NCBI GenBank assembly: GCA_041664925.1
Contig: JBAYJV010000004.1
Coordinates: 26,998-90,997, forward strand
Length of the DNA: 64,000 nucleotides
DNA from: Minisyncoccota bacterium
GTDB taxonomy: Bacteria; Patescibacteriota; Minisyncoccia; JBAYJV01
Direction of reading: 5' to 3'
Positions 3,934 through 60,388 of this stretch are shown here, in pieces. The notes under the pieces are model-generated. The model ran no database searches. It saw only the letters and a list, made by a program, of their open reading frames with translations, and was not told where the DNA came from. The stretch's first letter is position 1. Each line of letters begins with the position of its first letter. Both the position numbers and the translations under genes were made by a program.

Positions 3934-5658
3934 TTAAGCCTCAATAATCACCGGCAACACCATTGGTCGTCTCCTCGTTTGTTCGAAAAGAAAGCTACCA
4001 ACCTTCTCCCTAAGTATTTCCCTTAAGTGGGTCGCATTTACGCTCCTTCCAGGAGCCAATTCATTGTTGAGTAACTCTTTGACTAGAACTCTTGTATCAT
4101 TCAAGAGTTTTTTTGATTCTTTCAGATACACAAATCCCCTAGATATAATATCTATATTATCTTTAGTTTTATGAGCATTAGTATCAATAATAGCCACAAT
4201 AACAAACATACCATCTTGAGCCATAGTCTTTCTATCCCGTAAAACAATTTGACCAACATCCCCTACTCCCAAACCATCAACCATAACATAATCAACCGCA
4301 ACTCGCTGTTCAGTTTTATATATTCTGTTTCTCTCTAAATTTATGACTTCTCCGTTTTGTCCAACTAGAATATTTTTTGGATCCATGCCCAATTCCTGAG
4401 CTATTTGTCCATGATTTACTAGCATCGAGAAATTTCCATGAACCGGCATAAAAAACTTTGGCTTCACCAAGCTAATCATCATTTTTAAATCTTCTATCTG
4501 CGCATGTCCACCAGCGTGAATATCCATCATTTGATTGTGATATACCTTGGCACCCTGGCGACAGATATCGTCTTTTAACCCCTGGACAGCTCTTTCATTG
4601 CCAGGAATTACTGAAGAAGACAACACTAGAGTATCATGATTTTGTATTTTAAAATAATGGTGTTCGCCAGATACAATTCTTATAAGCGCTGCCCCTGATT
4701 CTCCTTGAGCTCCAGTACAGATAATAGTTACCTTGCTTGATTCAAGTTTAATCGCTTGTTTCGCGCTAATCAAAGTTCCTTTTTTGAATTTGATATACCC
4801 TAGGTCTTGAGCAATCTGCGCATTGCTTTTCATGCTATAACCCTCAAGTACTACTTTTCGTCCGTGTTTCTCGGACAAATTAATAATTTCTTGAATTCTT
4901 GTTATGAGCGACGAAAATGTTGCAATTATTAAGCGTCCCGAAGAACTTTCAAAAATTGTTTCTAGATTATCCTGAATTCCCTTCTCGGTAATTGTGTGAC
5001 CCTCCTTCTCTGAGCCAGTAGAATCAGACATTAATAATAATACTCCCTTTTGTCCAAATCTAGCTATTGATGCTAGATCTGCTGGTTTATCTGCTATTGG
5101 CTCAAAATCAAATTTAAAATCACCGGTATGTATAATTCTTCCCACTGGAGTTTCTATTGATAAACCAACCGAATCAGGTATGTTGTGATTTTGGTGAAAG
5201 GCTTCTATCGTAAATTGTCCCAATCTTATCGGATCGTTGATTTTTATTGTTTTAATATTTAATGGAGCTAGGTTCGGAAATTCCTCATGTCTCTTCAAAA
5301 TTAATCCCCTAGTTAGTGGAGTAGCATAAAGTGGTGGATGCTCTAAGTCCTTTATCAAATAAGAAATAGCGCCGATATGATCAAGATGACCATGCGTAAA
5401 GAAAATTCCCTGAATTCTTTTCTTATTTTTTTGAAAATATTGAATATTAGGGATAATAAAATCTATTCCTGGCATATCTTCTACTTCAGGAAAACGCAAC
5501 CCTATGTCGACAATAATGCACTCGTTTTCGTACTCAAAAACCATCATATTTTTACCTATTTCCCCTAATCCACCAAGAGATATAATTTTTATGTGTTTTT
5601 CTTTTGCGACATTGCTTCTTATATTGTTTTGTGAATTATGTTTTATATTGTTAATCAT
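3934..5658 (-). CDS. rnj: Ribonuclease J (metallo-beta-lactamase / beta-CASP RNase)
   Basis: 'HGHLDHIGA' MBL motif, beta-CASP region and 574-aa length. The start is preceded by a duplicated start region (see findings). Confidence 0.85.
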   Translation of the reverse strand: MINNIKHNSQNNIRSNVAKEKHIKIISLGGLGEIGKNMMVFEYENECIIVDIGLRFPEVEDMPGIDFIIPNIQYFQKNKKRIQGIFFTHGHLDHIGAISYLIKDLEHPPLYATPLTRGLILKRHEEFPNLAPLNIKTIKINDPIRLGQFTIEAFHQNHNIPDSVGLSIETPVGRIIHTGDFKFDFEPIADKPADLASIARFGQKGVLLLMSDSTGSEKEGHTITEKGIQDNLETIFESSSGRLIIATFSSLITRIQEIINLSEKHGRKVVLEGYSMKSNAQIAQDLGYIKFKKGTLISAKQAIKLESSKVTIICTGAQGESGAALIRIVSGEHHYFKIQNHDTLVLSSSVIPGNERAVQGLKDDICRQGAKVYHNQMMDIHAGGHAQIEDLKMMISLVKPKFFMPVHGNFSMLVNHGQIAQELGMDPKNILVGQNGEVINLERNRIYKTEQRVAVDYVMVDGLGVGDVGQIVLRDRKTMAQDGMFVIVAIIDTNAHKTKDNIDIISRGFVYLKESKKLLNDTRVLVKELLNNELAPGRSVNATHLREILREKVGSFLFEQTRRRPMVLPVIIEA

Positions 5659-5725
5659 TTTGTTTAATTATATTAACATTGCTTTTTATATTGTTAATCA
5701 TTTTATTTAATATTAATGGAGCGTG

Positions 5726-5808
5726 TGCTCGGGACAGGACTTGAACCTGCACGTCCTTACGGACCAGGCTTCTGAGGCCTGTGTGTATACCAATTCCACC
5801 ACCCGAGC
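5726..5808 (-). tRNA. tRNA-Leu (anticodon CAG)
   Basis: Manual fold of the 83-nt sequence: acceptor GCTCGGG/CCCGAGC, anticodon stem CAGGC/GCCTG, loop CTCAGAA, long variable arm, T-loop GTTCAAGTC. Confidence 0.85.
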
Positions 5809-5964
5809 TTAGATCAATTACAAAAATATGTTGAATTAATTTTATTTATTGCTTGTTTGCCAAAATAAAATCAAGATGAAAACAAAGCAAAAAATCACTA
5901 ATCATTAATTAAGTCCGTTAATGACTAGATAAATTTAAATTTTGGTGAAATTTTATCACTATCA

Positions 5965-6048
5965 TGCCGCGGGTGGGACTCGAACCCACACGGACATAAG
6001 CCCAAAAGATTTTAAGTCTTTCGCGTATACCAGTTCCGCCACCGCGGC
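5965..6048 (-). tRNA. tRNA-Leu (anticodon TAA)
   Basis: 84 nt with acceptor GCCGCGG/CCGCGGC, anticodon loop CTTAAAA, long variable arm and GGTTCGAGTCC T-arm. Confidence 0.85.
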
Positions 6049-6060
6049 AAATGAAACGTA

Positions 6061-6108
6061 AGGCCTGGATGGGAATCGAACCCATATACACAGGGTTTTG
6101 TCCCAGAA
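6061..6108 (-). other. 3'-half tRNA-Cys-like fragment (positions 35 to 3' end; variable loop 2 nt longer than the intact copy) preceded by TTCTGGGA
   Basis: CAAAACCCTGTGTATATGGGTTCGATTCCCATCCAGGCCT matches the intact tRNA-Cys 3' half. Confidence 0.65.
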
Positions 6109-6196
6109 ACTTCTATTCCGCCTGCCTGACGGCAGTCAGGGTAGGCAGGGCATACTGGAATTAGAATTTCGGGATCCCGAATCACTATTTTCGGCA

Positions 6197-6267
6197 AGGC
6201 CTGGATGGGAATCGAACCCATATACAGGGTTTTGCAGACCCTTGCCTAACCACTCGGCCACCAGGCC
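6197..6267 (-). tRNA. tRNA-Cys (anticodon GCA), intact, 71 nt, discriminator U
   Basis: Acceptor GGCCTGG/CCAGGCC, anticodon stem AGGGT/ACCCT, loop CTGCAAA and GGTTCGATTCC T-arm. Confidence 0.85.
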
Positions 6268-6280
6268 GAAAATCAAGTGA

Positions 6281-6321
6281 TTCTGGGACAGACCCTTGCC
6301 TAACCACTCGGCCACCAGGCC
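6281..6321 (-). other. 5'-half tRNA-Cys fragment (nt 1-33, identical to the intact copy) followed by TCCCAGAA
   Basis: GGCCTGGTGGCCGAGTGGTTAGGCAAGGGTCTG is an exact duplicate of the tRNA-Cys 5' part and ends in the anticodon loop after G34. Confidence 0.7.
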
Positions 6322-6387
6322 AAAGCTTAAAAAATAGACCTTGATTTAAGTGACCAGCTATACGAGGTTGAATTCAATTTATTGTAA

Positions 6388-6717
6388 CTATAATTGCTTA
6401 AACAAACCATCTAAAACACCTAACTTTTCTCCTTGTATATCTAATAAAAACCTGATTTTAGGAACAGGCCTCATGTATAATCTCTTATCAAGCGTTTTTT
6501 GAATAGAATAAATGTTTTTGTTTAATCCTTCTATGACTATTTTTGTTTCACTTTCGGGTAAAACCGTAATAAAAACTTTTGAATATCTACAATCAACGGA
6601 CGTTTCCGTTTTGGTTATTGTTATTAATGGTTTATTGATAAAGTCCGCTTCTTTAAGAATGATCTGTCCTAATTCTTGTCGAATTAAATCGTTAACTTGA
6701 TTAATACGCTTTGACAT
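6388..6717 (-). CDS. rbfA: Ribosome-binding factor A
   Basis: 109 aa with an RbfA-like pattern (KRINQVNDLIRQELGQII ... KVFITVL ... RPVPKIRFLLD). It lies immediately downstream of infB. Confidence 0.8.
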   Translation of the reverse strand: MSKRINQVNDLIRQELGQIILKEADFINKPLITITKTETSVDCRYSKVFITVLPESETKIVIEGLNKNIYSIQKTLDKRLYMRPVPKIRFLLDIQGEKLGVLDGLFKQL

Positions 6718-22970: not shown

Positions 22971-23047
22971 TGGTGCGCGTGGTCGGATTCGAACCAACGA
23001 CCTTTCGCATGTGAAGCGAACGCTCTAACCAACTGAGCTACACGCGC
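22971..23047 (-). tRNA. tRNA-Val (anticodon CAC), CCA encoded
   Basis: GCGCGTGTAGCTCAGTTGGTTAGAGC..., anticodon stem TTCGC/GCGAA, loop TTCACAT, GGTTCGAATCC, 3' ACCA. Confidence 0.85.
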
Positions 23048-23078: not shown

Positions 23079-23098
23079 CCTGCCTGCCGGCAGGCAGG
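23079..23098. repeat. Perfect 20-bp GC-rich palindrome CCTGCCTGCCGGCAGGCAGG (copy 1 of 3 identical)
   Basis: Exact self-complementary 20-mer about 30 nt upstream of tRNA-Val. Identical copies lie at 52438-52457 and 60096-60115. Confidence 0.9.
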
Positions 23099-23163
23099 TA
23101 ACCCCGTCCCAAGGACGGTCGGTCTTGGACCGAAACTGAGCTAATCGTCCTCTTTTAATAAAC

Positions 23164-23868
23164 TTAAGCTCCGAATCTGCGCCCACGGCCAAGATAATCT
23201 TTTACTGCTTTTTTTAATTCTTTTTTTCCAAAACTCGGAAAAAATGTTGGTGTAAAATAATATTGAGAGTAGGCCGTATGCCACATCATAAAACCAGCGC
23301 TATTGTGCGGTTCTCCTCCTGTTCTGATTACTAAATCAACTGGAGGTAATTCGGAGGTCATTAATTTTTGCTGGATCGTGTTGTAATTAATTTCCGATTG
23401 GCCATTTTCCACTATTAACTTCACCCCTTCTATCATCTCTGATAAGCCGTCATAGTCAAAAAGAAAACTTAGGTGTTTACTTTTATGACTCTTGGTCGCC
23501 TCTATGAGATGTAATATACTGTTTTCTAATTTTTTTGGTACTGAATTTTTCCAAAAACCAATAATCCTAACCTTAACATCTTCTTCATAAATTTTTTTAT
23601 TTTTTAGTAACGATTCAAATGCTTTTTGAAAAAGTTCATACAAAAAACTTACTTCTTTCTTGCTTCTCTTTGCCAAATTATCCCTAGAAGCAATCCAGAA
23701 GGTCAAATAATCAATACCAAGATCGGCAGCTTCTCTTATGATTTCTTCAATTTTCTTTGAGCCTTCATCGTGTCCTTTCCATGATGGCAATCCTCTCTTT
23801 TTTGCCCAGCGACGATTGCCGTCAGGAATTATCGCAAGATGTCTTAATTTTAATTTACTGCTATTCAT
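23164..23868 (-). CDS. uppS: Undecaprenyl diphosphate synthase
   Basis: 'HLAIIPDGNRRWA', 'DYLTFWIAS.DN' and C-terminal 'RRFG' are typical UppS motifs. Confidence 0.9.
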   Translation of the reverse strand: MNSSKLKLRHLAIIPDGNRRWAKKRGLPSWKGHDEGSKKIEEIIREAADLGIDYLTFWIASRDNLAKRSKKEVSFLYELFQKAFESLLKNKKIYEEDVKVRIIGFWKNSVPKKLENSILHLIEATKSHKSKHLSFLFDYDGLSEMIEGVKLIVENGQSEINYNTIQQKLMTSELPPVDLVIRTGGEPHNSAGFMMWHTAYSQYYFTPTFFPSFGKKELKKAVKDYLGRGRRFGA

Positions 23869-24679: not shown

Positions 24680-24763
24680 TTCAGTGAAAACAAAGAAACT
24701 GAAAACTGATTAAATTTTAAGCTTAGAAGATATAAAAGTCAATTAAAAAAAGCCCTAAAATTG

Positions 24764-24878
24764 CTTGGCAACAACCTACTCTCCCACCCTTAATAGGACA
24801 GTACCATAGGCGCTGGCAGGCTTGACTTCCGTGTTCGGAATGGTAACGGGTATTTCCCTGTCGCTATAGCCACCAAGC
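24764..24878 (-). rRNA. rrf: 5S ribosomal RNA
   Basis: The reverse complement reads GCTTGGTGGCTATAGCG...CCGAACACGGAAGTCAAGCC...GGGAGAGTAGGTTGTTGCCAAG. Confidence 0.85.
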
Positions 24879-24902
24879 AATTTTAAGACTCTTTTTTTTG
24901 TT

Positions 24903-27900
24903 AAAGTTAGGGGCGTCATCACCTTCGGTTAATTAGTACTTCTTGGCTAAAATCTTCGCAGATCTTACACCTGAAGCCTATTATTCCACCAGAGGTGGAT
25001 ACCTGGTAATCTTCCAGGAACCTTAATGATACTTAATCTTGAGTTAGGTTTCGCACTTAGATGCTTTCAGTGCTTATCCTTTCCCGACGATAGCTACCCA
25101 GCCATGTCCTTGGCAGGACAACTGGTACACCAGAGGTCGGTTCCTTACGGTCCTCTCGTACTAGTAAGGAGTTCTCTCAAGTATCGACGCCTACGGCAGA
25201 TAGGAGACCAACCTGTCTTGCGACGGTCTGAACCCAGCTCGCGTATCTTTTTAATTGGCGAACAGCCAAACCCTTGGGACCTTCTCCAGCCCCAGGATAA
25301 GATGAGCCGACATCGAGGTGCCGAACAGGGTCGTCGATTTGGACTCTCGGACCCTACTAGCCTGTTATCCCCAGAGTAACTTTTATCTGTTAATCTTCCG
25401 CCTTTCTATTAAGGGCGGTCGGTTCACTAAGTTCTGCTTTCGCAATAGCTCGACTAATAAGTCTCGCTATAAAGCTGGCTTATAGCTTTACCCTATCCTC
25501 GCCGTTTCCATCGGCAAGTAGCCAACCTTAATAAGCTCCACCGTTACTTTTTTGGTGGAAAGTGCCCCACTTAAACTACCCGCCTAATACTGTTCCCCAC
25601 TATGTGAGGTTAGAACTATTATTTTGAAAGAGTGGTATTTCACTGGCGACTCCATCCCAACCGAAATCAGGACTTCAAAGTCTCCCACATATTCTACGCA
25701 TCCAAAACAAAAGCTCAATATCAAGTTGCAGTAAAGCTTCTGGGGTCTTTTCGTCTAGCCGTAGGTAATCGGCATCTTCACCGATATTGCAATTTCACCG
25801 AGCTCCTCGTTGAGACAGTTCTCCAGTCGTGACGCCATTCATGCGAGACAGAAGTTACCTGCCAAGGTATTTCGCTACCTTAGGACGATTATAGTTATCG
25901 CCGTCGTTCACTGGCGCTTACATCACGAGCCTTGCCCATAAGGACAAAACAAGCGATGCTTGACGTTCCAGCACTGGACAGGCGTCAGCCCCTATACTTC
26001 CTATTACTAGTTCGCAGAGACCTGTGTTTTTGATAAACAGTCGCCGGAGATCATTTGCTGTGGCCCCGATAAATCGGGGCAGGTCTTATCCCTAAGTTAC
26101 GACCACTTTTTTGCCTAGTTCCTTAACGAGGAATCACTCGTTCGCCTTCCCACTTTTATGGGAACCCACCTGTTTCGGATTTAAGTACGAATCCTATTTG
26201 TCTAATCTGAGAAGTTTTTCTTGGAAGCCTGCTCGCTCTACTTCCCCTGGCCGAGGCCAGAGTTCGATTCACTCCTTTGATTTGTCATTAAAGACAGTTT
26301 CCCGGATTTGCCTAAGAAACAATCCTTAGAGAAAAAACGCGAATCCAATAACGCGCTAGAGTTACTAAACTTCGTCACTCCATCGAAACAAATAGGAGGG
26401 CCGGAATATTAACCGGCTGTCCATCCCCTATACCCTCTCGGGTTAAGAGTTAGGATCGCCTAACCCTTGGCTGAAGTTCATTGCCAAGGAAACCTTGGGT
26501 TTTCGGCGGTCCGATTTCTCATCGGACTTGTGGTTACTCATGCCAACATTCTCACTTCCGTCCTCTCCATCGAACTTTACAGTTCAACTTCACTGTGAAC
26601 GGAACGCTTCCCTACCGCCCAGCAAAAATGCTGGGCCCACATCTTCGGTATTAAGCTTAGCCCCGTGAATCTTCGACGCATTCTGCCACCTCCGGCAAGC
26701 CGGAGTTCGAATGGTGAGTTGTTACACACTCCTTAGATGATTGCTACTTCTGAGCAAACATCCCATCTGTCTATGGCAAAATACTTCCTTCCTCACTTAG
26801 CTTAAATTTTGGGACCTTAGATGGTGGTCTAGGCTGTTTCCTTCTTGAGCACGGAGCTTAGCCCCCATGCTCTTACTGCCCCATAATTATTTCTGGCATT
26901 CGGAGTTTGTTTGGATGCAGTAGGAAAAATCCATCCACACCCATTCAGTGCTCTACCTCCAGAAACGTAAATGAGACGCTAGCCCTAAAGCTATTTCGGG
27001 AAGAACCAGCTATTACCAAGCTCGATAAGCTTTTCACTGCTAACCACAGATCATCCCACTTTATTGCACAGAAGACGGGTTCGGACCTCCTCCGCCTTTT
27101 ACAGCGAATTCATCCTGTCCATGGTTAGATCGCCTGGCTTCGGGTCTGTTGCTAACAACCGTGAACGCCATTTTAAGACTCGCTTTCGCTATGACTACCC
27201 CCACACTTTGCGCTCCATTTTTTTAGTATGAAATGCAAGGCGCGGGGTTAATCAAGCTGTTAACAACAACTCGTTGGCTCGTTCTACAAAAAGCACGCCG
27301 TCAGGGCGTAGAATAAATCTGCACCCCTCCGACTCATTGTAGGTATATAGTTTCATGTTCTATTTCACCGCCCTCACCGGGCTACTTTTCACCTTTCCCT
27401 CGCGGTACTAGTTCACTATAGATCATCAAGAGTATTTAGCCTTACCTGATAGTACAGGTAGATTCCTCCAGTTTCAGGCCGGAGTACTCAAGAATGACAA
27501 CCAGAAGTATATAGCCGTTTTCGTCTACGGGACTTTCACCCTCTTTGGTGGCTCTTTCCAGAGACCTTTGACTAACGAAGCTATATAAGCTCCTCGTGAA
27601 AAAATCACATTGTTATCATCTTACGACCCCCCAACGAAAACGTTGAGGTTTGGGCTGTTCCCTTTTCGCTCGCCGCTACTTGGGGAATACTTCGCTTCGC
27701 ACATTTTATCAAAACTTACTGAAATCTACGCTGAGAAACGCTGAAAAAATATATTATCTGCATTAATCGGCGTAGTCATCAGTATGAATTTGAAATGCGA
27801 AGTTATTTTTGGTTTCTTTTCCTCTGGCTACTAAGATGTTTCACTTCGCCAGGTTACCTTCCCAACATAAATGTCGGGATAATGGCCTTTAAGGCCATTG

Positions 27901-28030
27901 GGTTGCCCCATTCGGAAATCCTCGGATCACAGATTGCTCAGCATCTCACCGAGGCTTTTCGCAGCTATGCCACGTCCTTCATAGGCTCTTGATGTCAGGG
28001 AATCCACTATACACCCTTAGTTGGTGATGA
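24903..28030 (-). rRNA. rrl: 23S ribosomal RNA (about 3.1 kb; ends approximate)
   Basis: Sarcin-ricin loop (rc AGTACGAGAGGACCG at 25151-25167). The 5' end resembles GGTG.ATAGTGGATTCCCTGACATC and the 3' end GTACTAATTAACCGAAGG. Confidence 0.85.
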
Positions 28031-28287
28031 CACCTCTAACTTTAACATTTGATTTTGATTACCTAATATAGATTTTTAAAGTACATTTCCAAGAAAAATC
28101 TTTTATTTCAAATAAAGGACTTTTCTTGGGAAATCAGGGTAACTTAAAAGCCGCTCATTTTTCACAAACACGGGCGGCTTGAACAAACACACTAACGATC
28201 AACTAACTAGCCGCTCGATTAAGGTTTATTTAATTGCCTGATTTTTAACACTATTTTCCAAACAAGCTAAAAATACTTGTACAACAC

Positions 28288-28315
28288 ATTATATATCCAC
28301 AATTTTTCTTGTCAA
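28288..28315 (-). promoter_or_regulatory. Near-consensus sigma70-type promoter for the 23S-5S unit (TTGACA-N16-TATAAT on the minus strand)
   Basis: rc of 28280-28320 reads ggggcTTGACAagaaaaattgtggataTATAATgtg. It sits about 260 nt upstream of the 23S 5' end. Confidence 0.5.
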
Positions 28316-28370
28316 GCCCCGCCAATACTATCAGTGGATATTATGTGTATATTATTTTAAATAAATCGTT

Positions 28371-28462
28371 TTGAGTGGACCACTTGAAAATTCATTGGAA
28401 TCAAATCGTCCAAGAGTTGGCGGTTTGGGGTCAGTTACGAACAGAAACTGCTTTTGTTAATT
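28371..28462. other. Conserved ~90-nt non-coding element, copy B (paralogous to 22148-22240)
   Basis: It lies between the 551-aa gene stop and the 23S promoter. Shared core is AAAATTCATTGGAA.CAAATC.T.CAAGA.TTGGCGGTTTGG.GTCA.TT.C.AACAGA. Confidence 0.55.
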
Positions 28463-28538
28463 AATTTATCAAAATGGTTTACTAAATTCTACACCAAAAC
28501 TTGCTTCGGCGAACAATTATAAAGCTTCACTTGTTTCT

Positions 28539-30194
28539 CTATAAATAATGCCTAGACAAAAACCAAACTGGAATAATTCCCAATATAAATAAGCTTGCAA
28601 TACTCCAAAATGATAATGCCGCAAATAAACATAAAAAGACTAAAGAAAACGAAAAAGTAACGCTCGTTTTTGGTTTTCCTTTTGCGTCCCAACGTAAAAA
28701 TAGATAAAAACCAAGTAGTGTAAAAATATTACTAAGCCCAATCAACGCATATTTTATAAAATTTCGGTAATAGATTAATCCTATAATTCCACCCGCTAAG
28801 AAAGACAAGATGAAAGTAAGAAATATATAAAGAAAAATATTAAAGACAAGGGAAGTCTTAGAATTGTCTAGCCAATTAGAAATATGTAACATTAAAGAAA
28901 TTTTTAAGGGCGAGCCTTCTTTCATCCATAAATCTTTTTTAAGCGATTGAGCTGGAGCATTAATAGTTATTTTTGTGTAGTTAACATTTTTATTTTCATA
29001 AAACTCATTTAATTCTTTAGAGGGTGTAAATATTGTATCGTTAACATTTTTTTCTTGATCATTTTCAAGCCGATCAAACACCCAAGCCCTTCCCGCTCCC
29101 GACATTATTGCTATTTCATAATTGTCTTTATCGCCATGGAATAAAAAGGGTGATAAGCAGTATTTTTCCATATCTTTAATGAAATTTTTAGCGTCAGATC
29201 CATTATTTGGATCATTGCTTAAATCTTCTAATGAAGAAGGGAAGGAATTATAATTTCCATGATACAGCTCAAGTGACGACTTAAGACGATATATAGAAGA
29301 TCGGCACCAACGATCAAGATAGTCGGTTTGCATGTCTAAAAAATACTCTACTTTTGTGTATGGCTTTATTTCTGAAAAAATCTCTGGCTTAACATGTCCA
29401 AAAATTCTAATTGTCATCGGTACTTGTTTTTCACCATATATACTAGTAGGGATTAAAGGATAATAAATTTTTTGTGTAGGGAAAGCGATAAAAATACCTC
29501 TTTGTTTATCATCATTATTTAGGTTCTTAGATGAAAGCCAGGAAACCACAAAAACATAGTCTTGATTCATATACGAGCTTAGTGTTGTCATGTCCCCCTG
29601 TTTCACTTTTAGGCCTTTATTAGAAAGGTAATTATATAAGGATTCAGTTTTTTGGGCTGTGATTGTTTCCATTATCATACCATTTTTCTCTATGTGTTGA
29701 TTTACGGAAATAAAATCTCCTGACGTTGATCCAGTGCCTGATCCACCACGAGCACTTGTAAGCGATGTCCCGACCACAACAACTGGAAAAAAAGACCAAA
29801 ATTGACTAGTTGCACTTATAAAAAATAAGTTTTTGAGTGATCTTGAAAGTGCAAGTTTTATCTTAGACATAACTTCATAACCTCCGAAAACTGGTATCTC
29901 AGACATAATATTCATTTTTATCTCTTTTGCTTTTCCAGGGATAGGCATTATCCACACAGTATCAGAATTTTGTTCATCAATATCTACCACTACGACCAGT
30001 TTTTCTTGTCCATTTTGGTAATTAATAAAGGCTTCCTGATTATTTTCATCGGCTAGCACTAAATCACCATTAGGTAAGCGTCTATGTGCATAGCCATCGC
30101 CATTGGCACAAAAAGGAGAGCTTAATAAAGTTATTATGAATAAAGAAATGATAAGTTTTTTAATCATTATGATTTTATTTACTTTTATGCTCAT
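28539..30194 (-). CDS. Hypothetical secreted/membrane protein (N-terminal signal, C-terminal multi-TM region)
   Basis: A 551-aa ORF with coherent codon usage, a signal peptide and about 4 C-terminal TM helices. No family assigned. Confidence 0.45.
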   Translation of the reverse strand: MSIKVNKIIMIKKLIISLFIITLLSSPFCANGDGYAHRRLPNGDLVLADENNQEAFINYQNGQEKLVVVVDIDEQNSDTVWIMPIPGKAKEIKMNIMSEIPVFGGYEVMSKIKLALSRSLKNLFFISATSQFWSFFPVVVVGTSLTSARGGSGTGSTSGDFISVNQHIEKNGMIMETITAQKTESLYNYLSNKGLKVKQGDMTTLSSYMNQDYVFVVSWLSSKNLNNDDKQRGIFIAFPTQKIYYPLIPTSIYGEKQVPMTIRIFGHVKPEIFSEIKPYTKVEYFLDMQTDYLDRWCRSSIYRLKSSLELYHGNYNSFPSSLEDLSNDPNNGSDAKNFIKDMEKYCLSPFLFHGDKDNYEIAIMSGAGRAWVFDRLENDQEKNVNDTIFTPSKELNEFYENKNVNYTKITINAPAQSLKKDLWMKEGSPLKISLMLHISNWLDNSKTSLVFNIFLYIFLTFILSFLAGGIIGLIYYRNFIKYALIGLSNIFTLLGFYLFLRWDAKGKPKTSVTFSFSLVFLCLFAALSFWSIASLFILGIIPVWFLSRHYL

Positions 30195-30396
30195 ATTTTA
30201 CCACAGAACTTTAATTTACAGATGTGCATAATACTAAAGTCACGGATGGGCAAAGCAAAAAGCCACGACCAGTGTGGCTTACAAGAATTTTGTAGACTCG
30301 ACCGGATTCCCTCCTTCTCCCTGCAAGCCGGGATTCGGACGGGCAAAGCGAACTAGTGACCTCCCCGGCATGCCGGGGCGTTCTATTTTAAACACA

Positions 30397-30469
30397 TGGA
30401 CCGATGGGGACTCGAACCCCAGACCTCCGCATTGCAAATGCGATGCTCTACCAACTGAGCTATCGGCCC
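30397..30469 (-). tRNA. tRNA-Ala (anticodon TGC) with the G3:U70 identity pair
   Basis: GGGCCGATAGCTCAGTTGGTAGAGC..., anticodon loop TTTGCAA, GGTTCGAGTCC. The acceptor has G3-T70. Confidence 0.9.
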
Positions 30470-30589
30470 GTTAGATTTTGTTATTGAACGCAGTGAAATC
30501 TAAAAAATCTTACGCCCTACCGTAGCTTTTTAGCGAAGGCGGGCAACAACATTGACTGTTAACAAATATACTTCATTTGCACCAAAAAA

Positions 30590-31771
30590 TCAATCACCGC
30601 TTAGTGTTTTCATATAAATTTCATGGGTTTTTTTTGCCATTTCTTGCCAGTCATATTTTTCTAAAATATTCTGAGCTTCCATTAGAAGTTTAATTTGAAG
30701 CCTTTTGTCCTGCAAAAGAACATTTAATTTATTCGCCATATCTTCCGGATTGTGAGGATCAAAATAAATAGATGAGTTTTTTAACACTTCTTTTAGAGGG
30801 TCAATATTGGAGCAAGCAACGGCCGTACCTTGGTTGAGCGCTTCAATTGTCACAAGACCAAAACCCTCGTAAAGAGAAGGTAAAACAAAAACATCTGCTG
30901 CTTGATATAAAAGATTTAATTTTTCGCCATAAAGAAATCCTGGTCTTATGATCTTGTTTTCCAATCCTCTTTTTTTCCACTCTTCTCTTGTTTCCGGATA
31001 ATAAGAATCTTCTGTCCCTCCCAAGACTAAATTGCCTTGAAAATTATATTTTTTTACTAAAATATCAAAAGCGTGGATAAGGTTTGGTAGATTTTTGTGC
31101 TCTCGCCACACGCCAACATAGAAAATGTATGGTTTTCTTAGATTTTTTAAGTTAAATTTTGACTGGAGATTTTTAAGCGCTATTTCTTTATTCTGAGTAT
31201 AGTTTTCAAGAAATTCTTTTCTTTGATCTGCTGTATTTTTATACTTAATGCCCTCATAAATGATTCCTATCTTATCTTTTTCAACTTTATAAAAATTAAT
31301 TAAATCTTTTTTTGTTTTTTCTGATGGAGTAATAATGTGTTTTGCTTTTTTTGTGCCGACTTTCAAAATTAAATCATAAGCTTTTCTCTTGTACCAACTT
31401 TGTCCCATTTTGTGCCCTGGAAAAAATTTAGGCGTAATATCGTGAATCGTTGTTATATATTTGCCCCGATAAAAAATAGGTAAATTGAAATGAGGAAAAT
31501 GAACTAAATCAAGTTTATATTTCAATAAATCGTGCAAAAAGAATATTTGTTCTTTGGCACTATACCAATGAGAAGTGACTTTTATTTTTTTAAAGTTTTC
31601 TCCAGGTAAAATTATAGATTCCATTGCATCTGGCAATAAAAAAATAAAATAATAATTAATTTTATCTATTTTGGCTAGATAATCTATGAGATACTGAATG
31701 TAGGTACCAATGCCGGTTTGTTGCGGTCCATACATTCTTGCATCAATGCCAATTTTGAATTTTTTATCCAT
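30590..31771 (-). CDS. Glycosyltransferase family 4
   Basis: A C-terminal 'EGFGLVTIEAL' GT4 motif and a GT-B-like N-domain. Length is 393 aa. Confidence 0.8.
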   Translation of the reverse strand: MDKKFKIGIDARMYGPQQTGIGTYIQYLIDYLAKIDKINYYFIFLLPDAMESIILPGENFKKIKVTSHWYSAKEQIFFLHDLLKYKLDLVHFPHFNLPIFYRGKYITTIHDITPKFFPGHKMGQSWYKRKAYDLILKVGTKKAKHIITPSEKTKKDLINFYKVEKDKIGIIYEGIKYKNTADQRKEFLENYTQNKEIALKNLQSKFNLKNLRKPYIFYVGVWREHKNLPNLIHAFDILVKKYNFQGNLVLGGTEDSYYPETREEWKKRGLENKIIRPGFLYGEKLNLLYQAADVFVLPSLYEGFGLVTIEALNQGTAVACSNIDPLKEVLKNSSIYFDPHNPEDMANKLNVLLQDKRLQIKLLMEAQNILEKYDWQEMAKKTHEIYMKTLSGD

Positions 31772-32921
31772 TATTTTTAAATAATTTTATTGTTTCCTGG
31801 GCACAGTTTTTCCAATTAAATTTCTGAGAAATTTTTATAGCTTTTTTTTCAAGCTTATTTCTTAAGGCTGGATCATTTAAAAGCAATTCCATTGCCCATG
31901 TAATTTCACTATATCGATATGGGTCGATCATAATCCCCCCTTCTCCAACGACAGAAGAAAGTGACGATCTATTGGATGCAATAATCGGCAAGCCACAACT
32001 CATCGCCTCAAGAATTGGCAATCCAAATCCTTCAAAGAAACTGGGATACACAAAAATCTTTGCTAGATTATACAGATAAATTCTCTCGTTTCGATCTATT
32101 GGTCCTAAGAAAAATATATCTTTTTTATAATTAGATTTTTGGATTTCGTGAAAAATTTTTCTAAAAAGCCATCCTTTTGGTCCCGCCAAAACTAACTTAT
32201 ATTTACCAAACTCAGAATTGCAATTTCTTAAAAGATTATAAGCCTTAACAATAGACACTATGTTTTTCCTAGGCTCCAGTGTTCCGAGATATAGAATGAA
32301 ATCATTGGGTAAGTTGTGTTTTTGTATAATCTTCTTTAAAGTTTTACTAGATTTTTCAATTGGTTTTAGGTCTTCCCCTTTCCCCAAGGAAATAACTGTG
32401 ATTTTGCCTTTTTTGATATTGTAGAAATATTCTATGTCTTGTTTTGTTGATTCAGAAACAGAAAAAATTTTCTTCGATCTCTCAGCTAAAAATTTTGGCC
32501 TAATAAACCAGTGCCAAAGCCTGCTTTTATAAGAAAAAAATTCAGGAAATCTTTTAAAAGAAAGGTCGTGAAATGTAATGATTGTTTTTTTTAGAATATG
32601 CTCTGGAATAATATTAATATTTGGAGCAAAAAATACATCGGGTCTTTCAAGAAATTTATCTAAATTTGGCCAATTAAGAAAACGCCAACAAACAGCAAGT
32701 AGTTTATTTGGATAATTTAAATGTTTGTTTCCTACATTAGAATATTTTTTGCATAATTCCTTTATATCGTCGTGAATTAGTTTATTTTTCCCGCTAGAAA
32801 ATAATAAATATTTATTTTCTTGATCAATTTTAAAAATTTCTTCAAGCAAACACAAAAGATATTCCTGAACTCCAGAATGTATTCTGTCCTGCAATGCCCT
32901 GATATCAATTGCGATTTTCAT
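31764..32921 (-). CDS. Glycosyltransferase family 4
   Basis: 'EGFGLPILEAMSCGLPIIAS' motif. It overlaps the downstream GT4 gene by 8 nt, which suggests an operon. Confidence 0.8.
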   Translation of the reverse strand: MKIAIDIRALQDRIHSGVQEYLLCLLEEIFKIDQENKYLLFSSGKNKLIHDDIKELCKKYSNVGNKHLNYPNKLLAVCWRFLNWPNLDKFLERPDVFFAPNINIIPEHILKKTIITFHDLSFKRFPEFFSYKSRLWHWFIRPKFLAERSKKIFSVSESTKQDIEYFYNIKKGKITVISLGKGEDLKPIEKSSKTLKKIIQKHNLPNDFILYLGTLEPRKNIVSIVKAYNLLRNCNSEFGKYKLVLAGPKGWLFRKIFHEIQKSNYKKDIFFLGPIDRNERIYLYNLAKIFVYPSFFEGFGLPILEAMSCGLPIIASNRSSLSSVVGEGGIMIDPYRYSEITWAMELLLNDPALRNKLEKKAIKISQKFNWKNCAQETIKLFKNNG

Positions 32922-32998
32922 AAATTACAAACTAATAATATTTGCGTTTTTTGTTCTATTCATTTAGCATACCACCCAAAAACTTTTTTGAAAAGAAA

Positions 32999-33023
32999 AG
33001 CGAGACAAAAATCTTGTCTCGCT
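32999..33023 (-). terminator. Stem-loop terminator-like hairpin (GCGAGACAA-loop-TTGTCTCGC)
   Basis: A perfect 9-bp stem immediately downstream of the 117-aa gene. Confidence 0.45.
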
Positions 33024-33030
33024 TGCTTTC

Positions 33031-33384
33031 TTAAAAACTACTACGAGTGGTAAATCGAATACCGTCTTCCATGTCTCTTTTTGTTCTTTCAAATTCTTCT
33101 TTTTCTTTTTTCAGAACGTCACTTACTAAATCTTCGGGTATTACAAGAAGAAGATCGGGCCAGAATGGAAGCTTTAGCAGATAACTTTTGGTTTTTTCAT
33201 CCCAATAGTAATAAATCCGAAAATCTAGTCTTTCGCCTTCAGAATGCAAAACACATAACATTCCTACTTCTGCTTTATCCTTTATCTCAAGTATTGCGTC
33301 ATTTCCTATATCTCTAAGACTATATCTGGGACCCATAATACTTTCTACTAGTTTTCTTATGTGTTTTGCTGTGATTTGACTCAT
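33031..33384 (-). CDS. Hypothetical protein
   Basis: A 117-aa ORF. No family could be recognised. Confidence 0.4.
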   Translation of the reverse strand: MSQITAKHIRKLVESIMGPRYSLRDIGNDAILEIKDKAEVGMLCVLHSEGERLDFRIYYYWDEKTKSYLLKLPFWPDLLLVIPEDLVSDVLKKEKEEFERTKRDMEDGIRFTTRSSF

Positions 33385-33622
33385 CTGTTTTTCTCCTCTT
33401 CCTTTGAAAACTTCTAAATACCAACTCTTGTTTTGGGCTTACTTGTTTACACTTATCACCTCCTCATTTTTTAAAGAACAAAAAATAGCCCTTTGATAGG
33501 CTATTTTATTATCAAGAACTTTATTAGATTTTTAGAAAAAGAAAAAACAACCTATCTAGGACTAGTTATTAAAAACCACCAAAACAAATTGTTATAAAAC
33601 TTTTTATTCATATTTTTCTATG

Positions 33623-33696
33623 TGGGCGTACTTGGACTTGAACCAAGGACCTCGTCATTATCAGTGACGCGCTCTAGCCAACTGAGCTATACGCCC
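33623..33696 (-). tRNA. tRNA-Ile (anticodon GAT)
   Basis: GGGCGTATAGCTCAGTTGGCTAGAGC, anticodon stem CGTCA/TGACG, loop CTGATAA, GGTTCAAGTCC. A hairpin at about 33492-33520 looks like its terminator. Confidence 0.9.
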
Positions 33697-33797
33697 GTAA
33701 TTTAGAATATAAGCTATTTTACAAAAATATCAGATAAAATCAAGTCTGTACGCAAAATATCTGACAAAACATCATTACTTCTTAATCCTGACCATTG

Positions 33798-34541
33798 CTA
33801 ACATTTATCCCAAATAAATTGAAACCATTGCCTATAACTTTCTGCTAATAATTTGTTTTTGGTAATAATAACCGTTATTCTTTCGTCAAATCTTCCAACG
33901 CTTTTAATTACGACTGTGGCTATTCGATCTCCGTATATATCTATAGTTGCCTGACTATCATATTGTTTGGGTAAAATTTTGTATTGCCAAAATTTCTCAC
34001 GACCTTTAATTAGCTTTTTAAATTCTTCTTTTGCCTTGTCATCCACAAGAGTGTTTAATTTTATTTTTTTCTTTTTTGCTTCAATCCAAAATTCATCCAT
34101 AAAAGAAGATATTTGTTCATCCGCCCAAGCACTTTTTATTCCGACAGCATAAATGTTTTCTCCGACTTCGAGAATGTCTCTAAATAAATTTTTATATCCC
34201 TCAATCCCCTTATATATAGACACATCTTCTTCTAGATATTTATCTTTATAAAGTTTTTTTAGCTTAGGCAAAACTTTTTCTACTGCTATTTTTTTCTCTC
34301 CAACAATTTCTAATAGTTTTACAGGATTTACGGCGGCATACTTATGTTCTTGGCTGGTTACAATACACGAAAGAAGTCCTTTTTCAACAAGACGATTAAC
34401 AGTATCATAGACATTTCTTCGATGGATATTAGCGCGAAGTGCTATGTCTGAAACTGAAGATCGTCCCAGCTCAAGGAGAGTTTCATAGACTTTTGCCTCA
34501 TTTAAAGACAGCCCAATAGATTGAAATAATTCTGTGTACAT
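33798..34541 (-). CDS. TrmB-family (HTH) transcriptional regulator
   Basis: An N-terminal wHTH 'LSLNEAKVYETLLELGRSSVSDIALRANIHRRNVYDTVNRLVEKGLL' is typical of TrmB-like regulators. Length is 247 aa. Confidence 0.6.
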   Translation of the reverse strand: MYTELFQSIGLSLNEAKVYETLLELGRSSVSDIALRANIHRRNVYDTVNRLVEKGLLSCIVTSQEHKYAAVNPVKLLEIVGEKKIAVEKVLPKLKKLYKDKYLEEDVSIYKGIEGYKNLFRDILEVGENIYAVGIKSAWADEQISSFMDEFWIEAKKKKIKLNTLVDDKAKEEFKKLIKGREKFWQYKILPKQYDSQATIDIYGDRIATVVIKSVGRFDERITVIITKNKLLAESYRQWFQFIWDKC

Positions 34542-34615
34542 GGTTATTTTATTAGTTTATTGAATTAAATTTGGAATTGAATTAATCAAAAATGGTCAAA
34601 AATACTGTGGTGGTG

Positions 34616-34644
34616 TTGGCCACTCATATATGATATGATAAAAT
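34616..34644 (+). promoter_or_regulatory. Putative sigma70-type promoter (TTGGCC-N17-TAAAAT) for the paralog pair
   Basis: The hexamers are visible in the divergent intergenic region between the TrmB-like gene and ORF A. Confidence 0.4.
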
Positions 34645-34654
34645 GGTATTAGGG

Positions 34655-34671
34655 TCAAGAATCGTTCTTGA
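34655..34671. promoter_or_regulatory. Perfect inverted-repeat operator candidate TCAAGAA-tcg-TTCTTGA
   Basis: A 7-bp IR with a 3-bp spacer between the putative -10 and the RBS of ORF A. It lies next to a divergently transcribed HTH regulator. Confidence 0.45.
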
Positions 34672-34700
34672 TTGTTCCTAAAAAAACAAAGGAGGAAATC

Positions 34701-35078
34701 GTGAGGAAATTCAAAGTAGAAAAAACTAGAATCCACAATGTTTTTTCTCCAGGAAATCGGTATCCATTCAATCTATTTCTAGAAACCACCTCTGGCGGTT
34801 CTGTAGTTGCGTTTATTGATAATGATAGTTCCTATACTTGTTCGTCGGATGACATTCGTTCATCAATTGAAGAAGCTTGGAAAAAATTGACTATAGTACT
34901 TTGTCAAAACAAAAATATTCTAGGCATCGCGATAGTTGCCCATCCATTCGAAATTCGTTGTAGCTTCAAGAGAGAAAACTATGAAGGAGATAAGTGTGAA
35001 AGCTTTATTGCTATCTTTCTGGCCGACCTTCGGAAGAATGGTTGGATAATACCCGACTACTATATCATCCAGAATTGA
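34701..35078 (+). CDS. Hypothetical protein, paralog A of a tandem pair (GTG start)
   Basis: RBS AAGGAGGAAATC then GTG. It is a paralog of the downstream ORF (shared 'EK..I..F.P.NR.P.F.L.L', 'W K.L.I', 'C...R......D.SF.IA.L..LRK..W'). GC content is higher than the surroundings. Confidence 0.5.
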   Translation: MRKFKVEKTRIHNVFSPGNRYPFNLFLETTSGGSVVAFIDNDSSYTCSSDDIRSSIEEAWKKLTIVLCQNKNILGIAIVAHPFEIRCSFKRENYEGDKCESFIAIFLADLRKNGWIIPDYYIIQN

Positions 35079-35102
35079 TCACTGCAAACAAAGGAGGAAA
35101 TC

Positions 35103-35549
35103 GTGAAAGTCGTAGCAGAAAAAGTAACGATATCGGGTATGTATGCGCCGAATCATCGACTTCCATCATTCACATTGGTTCTAAAGAAAAAGGTTCGCAG
35201 TCGCAAAATCAATGTGAATGTTGACGATATTCACGATTCGACACTTCTTGAAAGTTTTTCTTTTGACGAAACCTGGAAAGAGCTTGTGATTGCGTTTATG
35301 CAAATTGAACTCACAGAAAGTGTTACTGCTAATAAGTACTATCATAGAGGCCTTCAATGTTCTGTTAGAAAACCGGTCACTTCGGTCACTCTATCCGACT
35401 TCACTATTGCCCTATTAGATAGTTTTCGAGAGAAGAAGTGGAACTTCGAAGACTGTTATGTAAATCACGAATACATTGCCAGAGATGAAAAAGGATTATC
35501 ACCAACAGATAAAATTCAAATGGCAATTAAAAAGACCACCAGTTCTTAA
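35103..35549 (+). CDS. Hypothetical protein, paralog B of a tandem pair (GTG start)
   Basis: The upstream motif is identical (caaaggaggaaatcGTG), and it encodes 148 aa. Confidence 0.55.
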   Translation: MKVVAEKVTISGMYAPNHRLPSFTLVLKKKVRSRKINVNVDDIHDSTLLESFSFDETWKELVIAFMQIELTESVTANKYYHRGLQCSVRKPVTSVTLSDFTIALLDSFREKKWNFEDCYVNHEYIARDEKGLSPTDKIQMAIKKTTSS

Positions 35550-35557
35550 GAAAAAAA

Positions 35558-35589
35558 AGAGCTCCAGAAATGGGGCTCTTCTTTTTTTA
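35558..35589. terminator. Bidirectional rho-independent terminator (AGAGCTCC-loop-GGGGCTCT, flanked by A/T runs)
   Basis: aaaaaaaagagctccagaaatggggctcttcttttttt lies between the end of ORF B (+) and the 3' end of 16S (-). Confidence 0.6.
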
Positions 35590-35752
35590 CATAAAAAAAC
35601 ACCCAAAAAATATTAAGTGTTCTTTTTTAAACCAATTCTTTAGGGTTACCCCGAGACTGATTTTTTGAGATGTTCAGTCGCATCTCTGTCTTGTCCAATG
35701 GACAAGAGGTCGACTCCCACCCCGAACAATAAAGTTCAGAGTGAAGATTCTC

Positions 35753-37340
<1,588 letters not shown>

Positions 37341-52329: not shown

Positions 52330-52500
52330 AAATCTTTCAAATCCGAAAATCGAATATCGAAATTCGAAATAATATCTAATTTTTAATTTTCAAAGTATTA
52401 AAACGGTTTCGAATTTAAAATTTTAAATATTTGAATTCCTGCCTGCCGGCAGGCAGGTGTTTCGAGTTTCGTGCTTTAAAATTTCGGATTTAATTTAAAT
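52330..52500. repeat. MITE-like AT-rich repeat (family copy 1) with 'aaatccgaaaatcgaatatcgaaattcgaaat' terminal inverted repeats, carrying the 20-bp palindrome at 52438-52457
   Basis: Shares 'atatctaatttt', 'aaaacggtttcgaatttaaaat' and 'tttcgtgct' blocks with 63492-63660 and 61090-61222. Confidence 0.6.
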
Positions 52501-60079: not shown

Positions 60080-60128
60080 GGAAGGGTGGCTGAGACCTGC
60101 CTGCCGGCAGGCAGGGGCTGAAAGCAAC
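60080..60128 (+). other. Duplicated 5' portion (nt 1-29) of tRNA-Ser(GCT), precisely interrupted in the D-loop by the 20-bp palindrome (60096-60115)
   Basis: GGAAGGGTGGCTGAGA[CCTGCCTGCCGGCAGGCAGG]GGCTGAAAGCAAC. The parts flanking the palindrome equal the first 29 nt of the intact tRNA-Ser. Confidence 0.8.
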
Positions 60129-60139
60129 AAATATAAGAT

Positions 60140-60364
60140 ATGTTTTATGTTTATTTTCTAAAAAGTAAAAAAGATAATAATTTATATATAGGTCGGACAA
60201 ATAATATCAAAAGAAGATTCTGTGAACATAATGCAGGTAGTGTGCCTTCTACAAAATCGAGAAAACCATTCATACTTTTAGGATATGAAACATGCGAAAC
60301 TGAAAAAGAATCAGTAGAAAAAGAGAAATTGAGTTCAAAAAAGGATATAAGAGAGAAGAACTAA
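60140..60364 (+). CDS. Small GIY-YIG nuclease-domain protein
   Basis: 'FYVYFLKS.KDNNLYIGRTNNIKRRFCEHNAG...SRKPFILLGYE' matches the GIY-YIG catalytic core (GIY...YIG...R...E...N). Confidence 0.7.
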   Translation: MFYVYFLKSKKDNNLYIGRTNNIKRRFCEHNAGSVPSTKSRKPFILLGYETCETEKESVEKEKLSSKKDIREKN

Positions 60365-60388
60365 GAAGAAAATACAATCCATAAAAAT

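Follow-up and report, generated by a model that had tools for sequence, protein, structure and literature searches.

A complete tRNA-Cys gene nested within a split tRNA-Cys copy in Patescibacteria: architecture, distribution and possible origin

The stretch of 64,000 nucleotides (nt) of contig JBAYJV010000004.1 analyzed here (hereafter the window) carries on its minus strand, at 6321-6061, an intact tRNA-Cys gene that lies inside a second tRNA-Cys copy split between anticodon positions 34 and 35 (G34|C35). The insert that splits the outer copy is present in the window and absent in sister lineages, it occupies an exact point, its anatomy is conserved and the tRNA within it is normal. With moderate confidence, the arrangement is explained by the insertion of a cassette at the DNA level into the resident tRNA-Cys gene, which was probably single-copy, the cassette bringing along a replacement tRNA; the inner copy would be the one that works, and the outer halves would be the split resident gene, not used in decoding.

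Architecture of the nested locus

Read along the minus strand, the locus consists of tRNA-Cys nt 1-34, a segment X (21 nt), the intact 71-nt tRNA-Cys(GCA), a segment Y (96 nt) and tRNA-Cys nt 35-73. The intervening segment (6101-6288, 188 nt) starts with the letters TCCCAGAA and ends with TTCTGGGA; across the nested lineages the inserts are non-coding and measure about 130-190 base pairs (bp). The break is unambiguous, because the letters beyond each junction differ from those of the intact gene. Orthologous loci, designated by L-numbers, were retrieved via the neighboring proteins, plus one DNA-pattern scan of Joint Genome Institute (JGI) metagenomes. Full-length nested copies are those of the window, L020 and L010, whereas the contig of L027 stops inside the inner tRNA. 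A first-pass annotation of the window had described the nested and split tRNA-Cys at 6061-6321; its coordinates and sequences were found to be as described, and the arrangement recurs in other lineages. The features of the locus are listed below.

6289-6321, minus strand: outer 5' half of the resident tRNA-Cys, 33 nt that correspond to standard positions 1-34 and match nt 1-33 of the inner copy at 100% identity
6268-6288, minus strand: X, TCCCAGAATCACTTGATTTTC, the 5' arm of stem 1 from the first inserted nt, pairing over its full length with nt 5-22 of Y
6197-6267, minus strand: inner tRNA-Cys(GCA), 71 nt, without encoded CCA (ARAGORN; Rfam RF00005, 65.5 bits)
6193-6196, minus strand: unpaired 4-nt trailer UGCC from the inner tRNA to stem 1, also 4 nt in L020 (AAUC) and L010 (UGCC)
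6175-6192, minus strand: Y1, the 3' arm of stem 1 according to the fold, complementary to X, with compensatory changes
6101-6174, minus strand: hairpin 2, (U)CCC...GGG(A), from the fold of the rest of Y, reaching the last inserted nt, with counterparts in L020 and L010
6121-6149, no strand assigned: GC-rich hairpin, a secondary insertion in the loop of hairpin 2, missing from L020, with a 90% match to the palindrome CCTGCCTGCCGGCAGGCAGG
6061-6100, minus strand: nt 35-73 of the resident tRNA-Cys, its outer 3' half, equal to the inner copy save for two inserted nt (TG) in the variable loop

The inner tRNA-Cys is presumed, from its sequence, to be the working gene. It shows a full cloverleaf, the GCA anticodon, the U73 discriminator and a score of 65.5 bits against a gathering score of 29, it is identical to the single tRNA-Cys of L003 and of L022, and it alone is called by ARAGORN and Rfam within 6321-6061. 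Identity of the outer 5' part with the intact gene, as claimed in the first-pass annotation, was confirmed over all 33 nt; the outer 3' half, given there as nt 35 to the end, is not identical on account of its TG insertion. The outer 5' half adjoins the same upstream flank as in L003, a relative with an empty site, and the outer 3' half is followed by an 11-nt spacer and then by tRNA-Leu(TAA), again as in L003. Regarding the letters next to the break, the outer halves of the window read ...GGGUCUG at the end of the 5' part and CAAAACCCUGUGUAUAUGGG on the 3' side, with the TG insertion as a marker of the outer copy; those of L010 read ...GGGGUGUG (5' side) and CAAAACCCUC (3' side), with the markers G32 and C42-U43-C44.

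Stem 1 is formed by X and nt 5-22 of Y (18 bp) and encloses the inner tRNA, whose 5' end abuts the stem. Its energy was -19.5 kcal/mol in the window, -14.5 kcal/mol in L020 and -15.1 kcal/mol in L010, and none of 500 shuffles of X was as good (in the window, -19.5 versus -10.2 +/- 2.3 kcal/mol for shuffled X); the pairing of X with Y is therefore not a matter of chance. Judged from the aligned sequences, stem 1 covaries across lineages: the window has C-G as its innermost pair where L020 has U-A, and the paired core of 8-9 nt is GAAUCACU/AGUGAUUC in the window clade versus AGAAUUGUU/AACAAUUCU in L010, with complementarity kept. Stem 1 is followed by a single U and then by a CCC...GGG(A) hairpin that closes at the final inserted nt in all full-length copies (hairpin 2; the L010 equivalent of this flush hairpin is CCCGUGGUUUCACGGG). 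Both junctions lie at helix bases at a three-way junction with the anticodon stem, where the linkers CUG and CAAA are single-stranded. The fold of the 261-nt RNA was better than that of shuffled sequences (z = -4.2). Pairing of the terminal 8-mers of the insert, to which the first-pass annotation had drawn attention, is real: in the window and L020, the final 8 nt of Y offer X(1-8) a second partner, and this is the minimum free energy choice there; the stronger, conserved partner of X is, however, the start of Y. The CCTGCC...GGCAGG hairpin had been regarded as part of the element, but the L020 element lacks it and is otherwise colinear and about 90% identical, so that the hairpin must have entered the loop of hairpin 2 at a later stage.

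X and Y of the window type and of the L010 type showed no significant similarity (p = 0.13-0.74), and the two types of insert may or may not share descent. Searches for copies of, and similarity to, X and Y covered the 64-kb window and all compared loci; they yielded no other copy of either segment, which are both foreign to the empty locus, and no further copy of the element or of its GGGATCCC center. Derivation of X and Y from the tRNA, e.g. from an inverted or diverged T arm, was rejected, as local alignments remained at the level of shuffles except for one 7-mer. Break-induced copying with duplication of the flanks would predict X/Y-like sequence in the flanks beyond the outer halves, and none was found there.

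Distribution in relatives and state of the copies

The window is a section of a metagenome contig of 93 kb (ENA ERZ27249449, k141_225400); the source communities of the nested loci include this ENA assembly as well as JGI 3300029286 and 3300005911. The host belongs to the ultra-small bacteria of the candidate phyla radiation (CPR), or Patescibacteria; NCBI labels its RbfA 'Candidatus Paceibacterota bacterium', and the relatives of its RNase J bear the names Parcubacteria or Portnoybacteria. The DNA of the window has a G+C content of about 34% and is dense in coding sequence. The nested gene belongs to a tRNA cluster with the order infB, rbfA, tRNA-Cys, tRNA-Leu(UAA), tRNA-Leu(CAG) and rnj on the minus strand. 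A scan for promoters and terminators gave no signal above that of shuffled sequences.

The same nested architecture at the 34/35 bond was found in L020 (IF-2 88% identical to that of the window; 84% nt identity over 8.9 kb), in L027 (RbfA 88% identical) and in the far more distant L010/L011/L021 (RNase J 73% identical), which are separate assemblies. The next closest relative, L003 (IF-2 81% identical), has one plain tRNA-Cys located 11 nt upstream of tRNA-Leu, and BLAST joined its positions 2601|2602 exactly to 6289|6100 of the window; the segment 6101-6288 is therefore an insertion relative to L003. This empty site, which joins 6289 to 6100, supports the earlier proposal of a cassette-type insertion with its own replacement tRNA-Cys. 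The comparison of orthologous loci that had been suggested along with it revealed an uninterrupted tRNA-Cys at the same locus in L003, L028, L014-18 and L022-25. The nested lineages fall within one clade of the RNase J tree, ((window, L020, L003), (L010, L007)), on which one gain followed by at least two precise losses and two separate gains would fit equally well.

Regarding more distant sources, the pattern scan of JGI metagenomes yielded only three loci, one of them unrelated, and the nested D-arm pattern had 0 matches in viral contigs. An IF-2-guided scan of GTDB genomes, for which low-complexity peptides had been picked, returned only an unrelated Rikenellaceae locus. The unrelated JGI locus (L019 60-420, from a GC-rich organism) contains a partial tRNA-Cys that comprises the 5' part up to and including the anticodon arm. 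Next come an intact tRNA-Cys of different sequence and an open reading frame (ORF) that was read by eye as a phage-type integrase; the locus looks like an ordinary partial duplication of tRNA-Cys of the integrase/attachment-site type. A duplicate of tRNA-Cys nt 1-54 in L024 (3138-3364) was discarded as a scaffolding artefact, the copies standing on both sides of a run of N. The L010 locus (995-1660) has an rbfA-tRNA-Cys spacer of 366 nt versus 6-66 nt in relatives; it is rich in short direct and inverted repeats, e.g. CGTCAAGGTTCT/AGAACCTTGACG and a 27-nt pair at 997/1326, and copies of AGAACCTTGACGG occur on both sides of the L010 nested tRNA-Cys.

As the source is a metagenome assembly, an artefact or chimera has to be considered for the nested arrangement itself. 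The arrangement was, however, seen in four sequence-divergent lineages from MEGAHIT/ENA, JGI and Logan assemblies, and the contig names (k141) point to an assembly k-mer longer than the repeats. Because the nested lineages differ in assembler, sample and sequence, an assembly artefact is excluded, and its probability is rated as negligible.

The inner copies are flawless, or altered by compensatory pairs. The outer copies have oddities, namely a variable loop of 6 nt in the window, G9U and an extra nt at 26/27 in L027, and G32, G27.U43 and C44 in L010. Differences between inner and outer copies cluster by the junction (nt 26-28, 32 and 42-46; the exception is G9U in L027), whereas the acceptor, T and D stems are equal in the inner and outer copies of every lineage. 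Such clustering fits a relaxed constraint on the anticodon arm alone, or gene conversion that is weaker at the edge of homology. The anticodon stem of the outer L010 copy has the ancestral core GGGU/ACCC, and that of the inner copy has shifted to GAGGU/ACCUC; because the outer copy keeps the ancestral core, its pairing reflects retained ancestry and is no proof of selection.

Two alternative explanations bear directly on these copies. The outer halves together with stem 1 might form a functional, non-decoding, tRNA-like shell, i.e. a two-piece RNA serving in processing, stability or protein binding. The likeness of the inner and outer acceptor, T and D stems, with differences mostly near the junction, would be in line with this, as would conservation above the neutral level (see below) and the persistence of the arrangement despite direct repeats that are prone to deletion. 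The same pattern is, however, expected from gene conversion that weakens at the edges of homology, the shell has neither a precedent nor a known partner protein, and sister lineages do well without the nested arrangement; the explanation is rated as quite unlikely. The second alternative is a local rearrangement without foreign DNA, either a triplication followed by two deletions or template switching. It would account for the near-identity of the inner and outer copies within each genome, and for the lineage-specific T-arm states shared by the two L010 copies. On the other hand, X and Y resemble neither the flanks nor the tRNA nor the empty locus, two independent deletions would have to end at one and the same phosphodiester bond, and the complementarity of X and Y1 is left unexplained, which makes this origin very unlikely.

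Comparison with known elements

Further tRNA genes of the clade have been remodeled by cassettes that encode GIY-YIG proteins. L022 and L023 are strain-level relatives with identical RNase J proteins and differ by a cassette at tRNA-Leu(UAA) (L023 500-835; L022 1855-1875), which consists of a copy of tRNA nt 1-33 and a GIY-YIG ORF of 80 amino acids (aa), followed by the intact gene; the 20-nt palindrome CCTGCCTGCCGGCAGGCAGG stands exactly in the D loop of the tRNA fragment, between TATA and CGCG. The two strains form a clear-cut pair, one with and one without an endonuclease cassette that targets a tRNA. The window itself contains a similar locus on the plus strand (60080-60481), in which a copy of the first ~29 nt of tRNA-Ser(GCU), its D loop split by CCTGCCTGCCGGCAGGCAGG (60096-60115), is followed by a degraded GIY-YIG ORF of about 63 aa (60140-60328, 42% identical to the L023 protein) and the intact tRNA (60389-60481). 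L010 carries a nested tRNA-Leu(UAA) at 1675-2228 (the same in L011/L021). Its resident parts (5' part GCTGGCG..., 3' part ...CGCCAGCA) have the complementary acceptor strands GCTGGCG/CGCCAGC, and its insert comprises an 83-aa GIY-YIG ORF (1762-2013) and a complete tRNA-Leu(TAA) (2014-2098) that looks foreign by its different acceptor stem, GCCGAGG/CCTCGGC. A hairpin element of about 34 nt, CAGGGTTACCGTGAAYCCTTTAGTGGTTCACGGT, is present twice in the disrupted tRNA-Leu, once in the D loop and once in the anticodon loop.

Because of the L010 tRNA-Leu and the other GIY-YIG cases, insertion of cassettes that bring a replacement tRNA is a demonstrated process in this clade, and the tRNA-Cys case is best described, as far as sequence can tell, as a miniature, ORF-less form with conserved hairpins of its own. 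It shares with the GIY-YIG cassettes the tRNA targets in the same operon and clade, the nested replacement seen at tRNA-Leu of L010, and the presence or absence of the insert among close strains (L022/L023). It differs from them in that its insert lacks an ORF or a recognizable remnant of one and is flanked by a conserved, covarying stem, and in that no D-loop hairpin is present in the leftover fragment. Classification as a GIY-YIG cassette was rejected, as tblastn with GIY-YIG proteins of the clade gave matches at 60140-60328 of the window, in L010 and in L023, and none at 6061-6321. Target-duplicating GIY-YIG cassettes also occur in fungal mitochondrial genes and among the seg genes of phage T4.

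The palindrome CCTGCCTGCCGGCAGGCAGG occurs in perfect form at 23079-23098, 52438-52457 and 60096-60115 of the window and at 544-563 of L023, and as 90% variants at 6121-6140 and 63514-63533 of the window (pattern search: seven overlapping matches at four sites versus 0.01 expected by chance). Its sites are intergenic DNA and the D loops of tRNA fragments, and its letters are unchanged in a species with an RNase J of only 74% identity to that of the window; by this distribution, its behavior is that of a very small hairpin which is mobile or templated. A stray 5' fragment of a tRNA (GGACGATTAGCTCAGTT...GGTTA...GAGCGC) was observed on the minus strand at about 23100-23165, upstream of tRNA-Val(CAC) (22971-23047). 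Two hairpin insertions, CCGTCCTTGGGACGG and the 20-nt palindrome, occupy its D loop, and it is located 26 nt ahead of tRNA-Val with no ORF between.

Regarding introns, the first-pass annotation had likened the arrangement to an intron at the classical 34/35 position. No match to an intron or ribozyme family was obtained in the window (5600-6700, E<=10) or in L010, L020 and L023 (E<=1), where only tRNAs and chance hits were returned. A group I intron was rejected: the non-tRNA part of the insert (61-117 nt) is too small and has no match to a catalytic core (P3-P9), G34 is the last nt of the 5' exon in every lineage, whereas group I needs U there, and the last nt of the insert is A in the window and L020 and G in L010 (group I needs G). 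The bulge-helix-bulge motif is defined by two 3-nt bulges on opposite strands, 4 bp apart, each with a splice site. It was rejected as well, since the junctions face each other at a helix end across a 3 x 4 nt junction (CUG/CAAA), and no pairing register, as worked out by hand from the sequences, yields the 4-bp central helix. The modeling of the intervening RNA that had been recommended produced no such motif, no ribozyme family matched, and the intron-like interpretation, in the sense that the outer halves are spliced as RNA, is left without support.

A form of RNA splicing that uses host enzymes may still be envisaged, in which RNase P and 3' processing free the inner tRNA and further cuts fall at the base of stem 1 (5' junction) and of hairpin 2 (3' junction). 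An RNA ligase would then connect G34 with C35, and two mature tRNAs would result. This would agree with the exon and intron ends being juxtaposed at the three-way junction in 3/3 full-length lineages, with the validity of the joined outer halves as a tRNA-Cys, and with the conservation of the outer halves and the intron well above neutral. In all lineages the first intron nt (+1) opens stem 1, and U-CCC comes directly after the stem, which resembles an acceptor helix with its 3' tail; this stem and tail may be comparable to hairpins cut by RNase P (p4.5S RNA). Against it stand the missing match to group I, group II or small ribozymes, the breach of the group I end rules (exon G; intron A or G), the missing bulge-helix-bulge geometry, and outer oddities that are unusual for a decoding tRNA (G32 in L010; the 6-nt variable loop in the window). 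A tRNA splicing endonuclease is not known from bacteria, and no EndA, RtcB or other RNA ligase was found among the annotated ORFs of the window (30 ORFs, within 0-45 kb). Splicing of this kind is considered unlikely.

Group I introns in anticodon loops of bacterial tRNAs occur at 34/35 of tRNA-Leu and, in Patescibacteria, at 35/36 of tRNA-Asn and tRNA-Asp (PMC13011429). The tRNA-Cys insert resembles them in sharing the 34/35 bond with tRNA-Leu(UAA), in belonging to an intron-rich phylum and in being missed by standard tRNA finders; unlike them, its 61-117 nt (without the tRNA) include no Rfam intron match or catalytic core, the 5' exon does not end in U, and the inserts of the window and L020 lack the final G. 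The split tRNAs of archaea (Nanoarchaeum) are similar in that the outer pieces would be 5' and 3' halves held together by complementary extensions after release of the inner tRNA, and archaeal tRNA introns with a C/D box RNA are a precedent for an intervening sequence that carries a functional RNA. The present case differs from both in being bacterial, in having no bulge-helix-bulge and in having a second copy of the same tRNA as its cargo.

Integron cassettes offer a further comparison, as the first nt of the unit pair just past the cargo, the hairpin is flush at the 3' end, and the circularized unit would be a long imperfect hairpin with bulged bases. The tRNA-Cys unit, unlike integron cassettes, has no R'/R'' core consensus, integrase or array, and it combines an RNA gene as cargo with an anticodon loop as target. 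An integron cassette was rejected for lack of GTTRRRY/RYYYAAC core sites, the ends being TCCCAGAA...GGGA in the window and TCTTAGAA...CGGG in L010; with no integrase among the annotated ORFs of the window, the likeness is limited to hairpin topology. Islands and prophages that integrate into tRNA genes likewise put foreign DNA into a tRNA gene, in many cases at the anticodon loop, keep the function of the gene by the tRNA sequence they bring, and are flanked by direct tRNA repeats. The tRNA-Cys insert, however, is only 130-190 bp long, has no integrase or shared core sequence, brings a whole tRNA while leaving both halves outside, and is bounded by flush hairpins. An integrase-mediated island was rejected on the grounds that the insert has no ORF, that its neighbors are rbfA, infB and rnj, and that both tRNA halves are duplicated. 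An element derived from a miniature inverted-repeat transposable element or an insertion sequence was likewise rejected: complementary ends are present, but without a target duplication or an extra copy in the window and compared loci.

An actively mobile mini-cassette, recombining as a folded hairpin with the tRNA as cargo, would keep the outer halves fresh by repeated re-insertion. Joining of the ends (TTCTGGGA|TCCCAGAA) would combine Y1, hairpin 2 and X into a long imperfect hairpin with the cut site inside its stem. Further points in favor are the flush stacked helices at both ends in all lineages, the exact 34/35 site in two deep lineages without detectable X/Y similarity, the patchy occurrence among close relatives and the conservation of the insert above neutral. 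The explanation is nevertheless unlikely, as its ends have no integron core sites, no integrase or transposase was seen among the annotated ORFs of the window, each locus has one copy and none occurs elsewhere in the window and compared loci. The metagenome scan returned only the three loci mentioned above and viral contigs none, and the intact inner tRNA-Cys would itself be a target.

Elsewhere in the window, the rRNA genes (24763-37340, minus strand) are spread among protein-coding genes, in the order 16S (35758-37340), a TrmB-like regulator, tRNA-Ile (33622-33696), two GT4 glycosyltransferases, tRNA-Ala (30397-30469), a DUF2330-like ORF, 23S (24914-28030) and 5S. The 23S rRNA gene measures 3117 nt versus 2925 nt for the model and probably contains an insertion.

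Favored explanation and its meaning

According to the favored explanation, a cassette with the order arm X, complete tRNA-Cys, 4-nt trailer, arm Y1 and hairpin 2 would have entered the resident gene between nt 34 and 35. Its origin may lie in the activity of mobile elements or in the repair of double-strand breaks, which is rampant at the tRNA genes of this clade, and selection would admit only insertions that carry an intact tRNA-Cys. The locus would be transcribed from the native upstream promoter as a single precursor; RNase P and maturation of the 3' end would free the inner tRNA from it, perhaps once the 18-bp stem 1 has been cut, while the outer halves would pair with each other and give no decoding tRNA. 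Stem 1 may hold the fold in register, so that inner half pairs with inner half and outer with outer. Loss of one direct repeat would leave a lone half-tRNA that competes with the folding of the working tRNA; reversion would therefore need two deletions via a worse intermediate, which could explain the persistence of the arrangement. The likeness of inner and outer copies may be upheld by such a folding constraint, by gene conversion, or by both.

Several points weigh against this explanation. The outer halves of the window and of L020 differ by a single indel and by no substitution (0 in 71 nt), more conservation than expected for relics, and X and Y have an identity of about 90%, including unbroken identical stretches of 30 and 17 nt. 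As 4-fold degenerate sites are only 52-69% identical between the same two genomes, the identity of the insert and the outer halves is far above that of these sites, and neither is neutral; these values call for selection, for recent spread or for gene conversion in which the inner copy is the donor, and an RNA-level role or active spread of the insert may lie behind them. The joined outer halves are called as tRNA-Cys by ARAGORN, with a cloverleaf in all lineages; the earlier statement that joining them would rebuild a complete tRNA-Cys(GCA) was thus borne out, in silico, for every lineage. Neutral direct repeats of 33-38 nt should, by a general estimate, be deleted quickly, and the argument from insulation and a fitness valley given above is inferential. 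No transposase or integrase is present among the 30 annotated ORFs, all of which are housekeeping, and neither the element nor the annotated 0-45 kb contains an enzyme able to move the cassette. Target-site duplication is lacking in the window and amounts to an overlap of at most 1 nt (G) in L010, and the window and compared loci show no multi-copy family or known transposition signature.

A bolder interpretation, which is regarded as doubtful, would see in the insert a new kind of very small element directed at tRNA genes, able to persist in an essential single-copy gene because it provides a spare copy of that gene. It would be either an addiction module mobile as a hairpin, or an element removed at the RNA level by the tRNA-processing enzymes of the host and a ligase, one transcript then giving two tRNA-Cys.

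Bacterial tRNA genes have been reviewed as structurally uniform apart from self-splicing introns (PMC4033280). Literature searches turned up no account of a tRNA lodged within a split copy of the same tRNA, nor of GIY-YIG elements with Patescibacteria tRNA genes, which agrees with the remark in the first-pass annotation that no element of such architecture had been described. In concept, the arrangement extends a known principle, i.e. that elements which insert into tRNA genes restore the gene with a tRNA sequence of their own.

What is seen here, reproducibly and in several species, is a bacterial tRNA gene whose anticodon is broken by a non-catalytic insert holding a complete spare tRNA, and since tRNA finders see the inner copy alone, similar cases may be under-counted. 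If the outer halves were indeed joined at the RNA level, this would be the first protein-dependent tRNA splicing in Bacteria and a living analogue of split-tRNA scenarios for early tRNA evolution. If the arrangement acts at the DNA level only, it would represent a new route by which an insertion survives in an essential single-copy gene, namely by becoming indispensable, and the tRNA operons of Paceibacteria would be hot spots of remodeling driven by endonucleases and hairpins.

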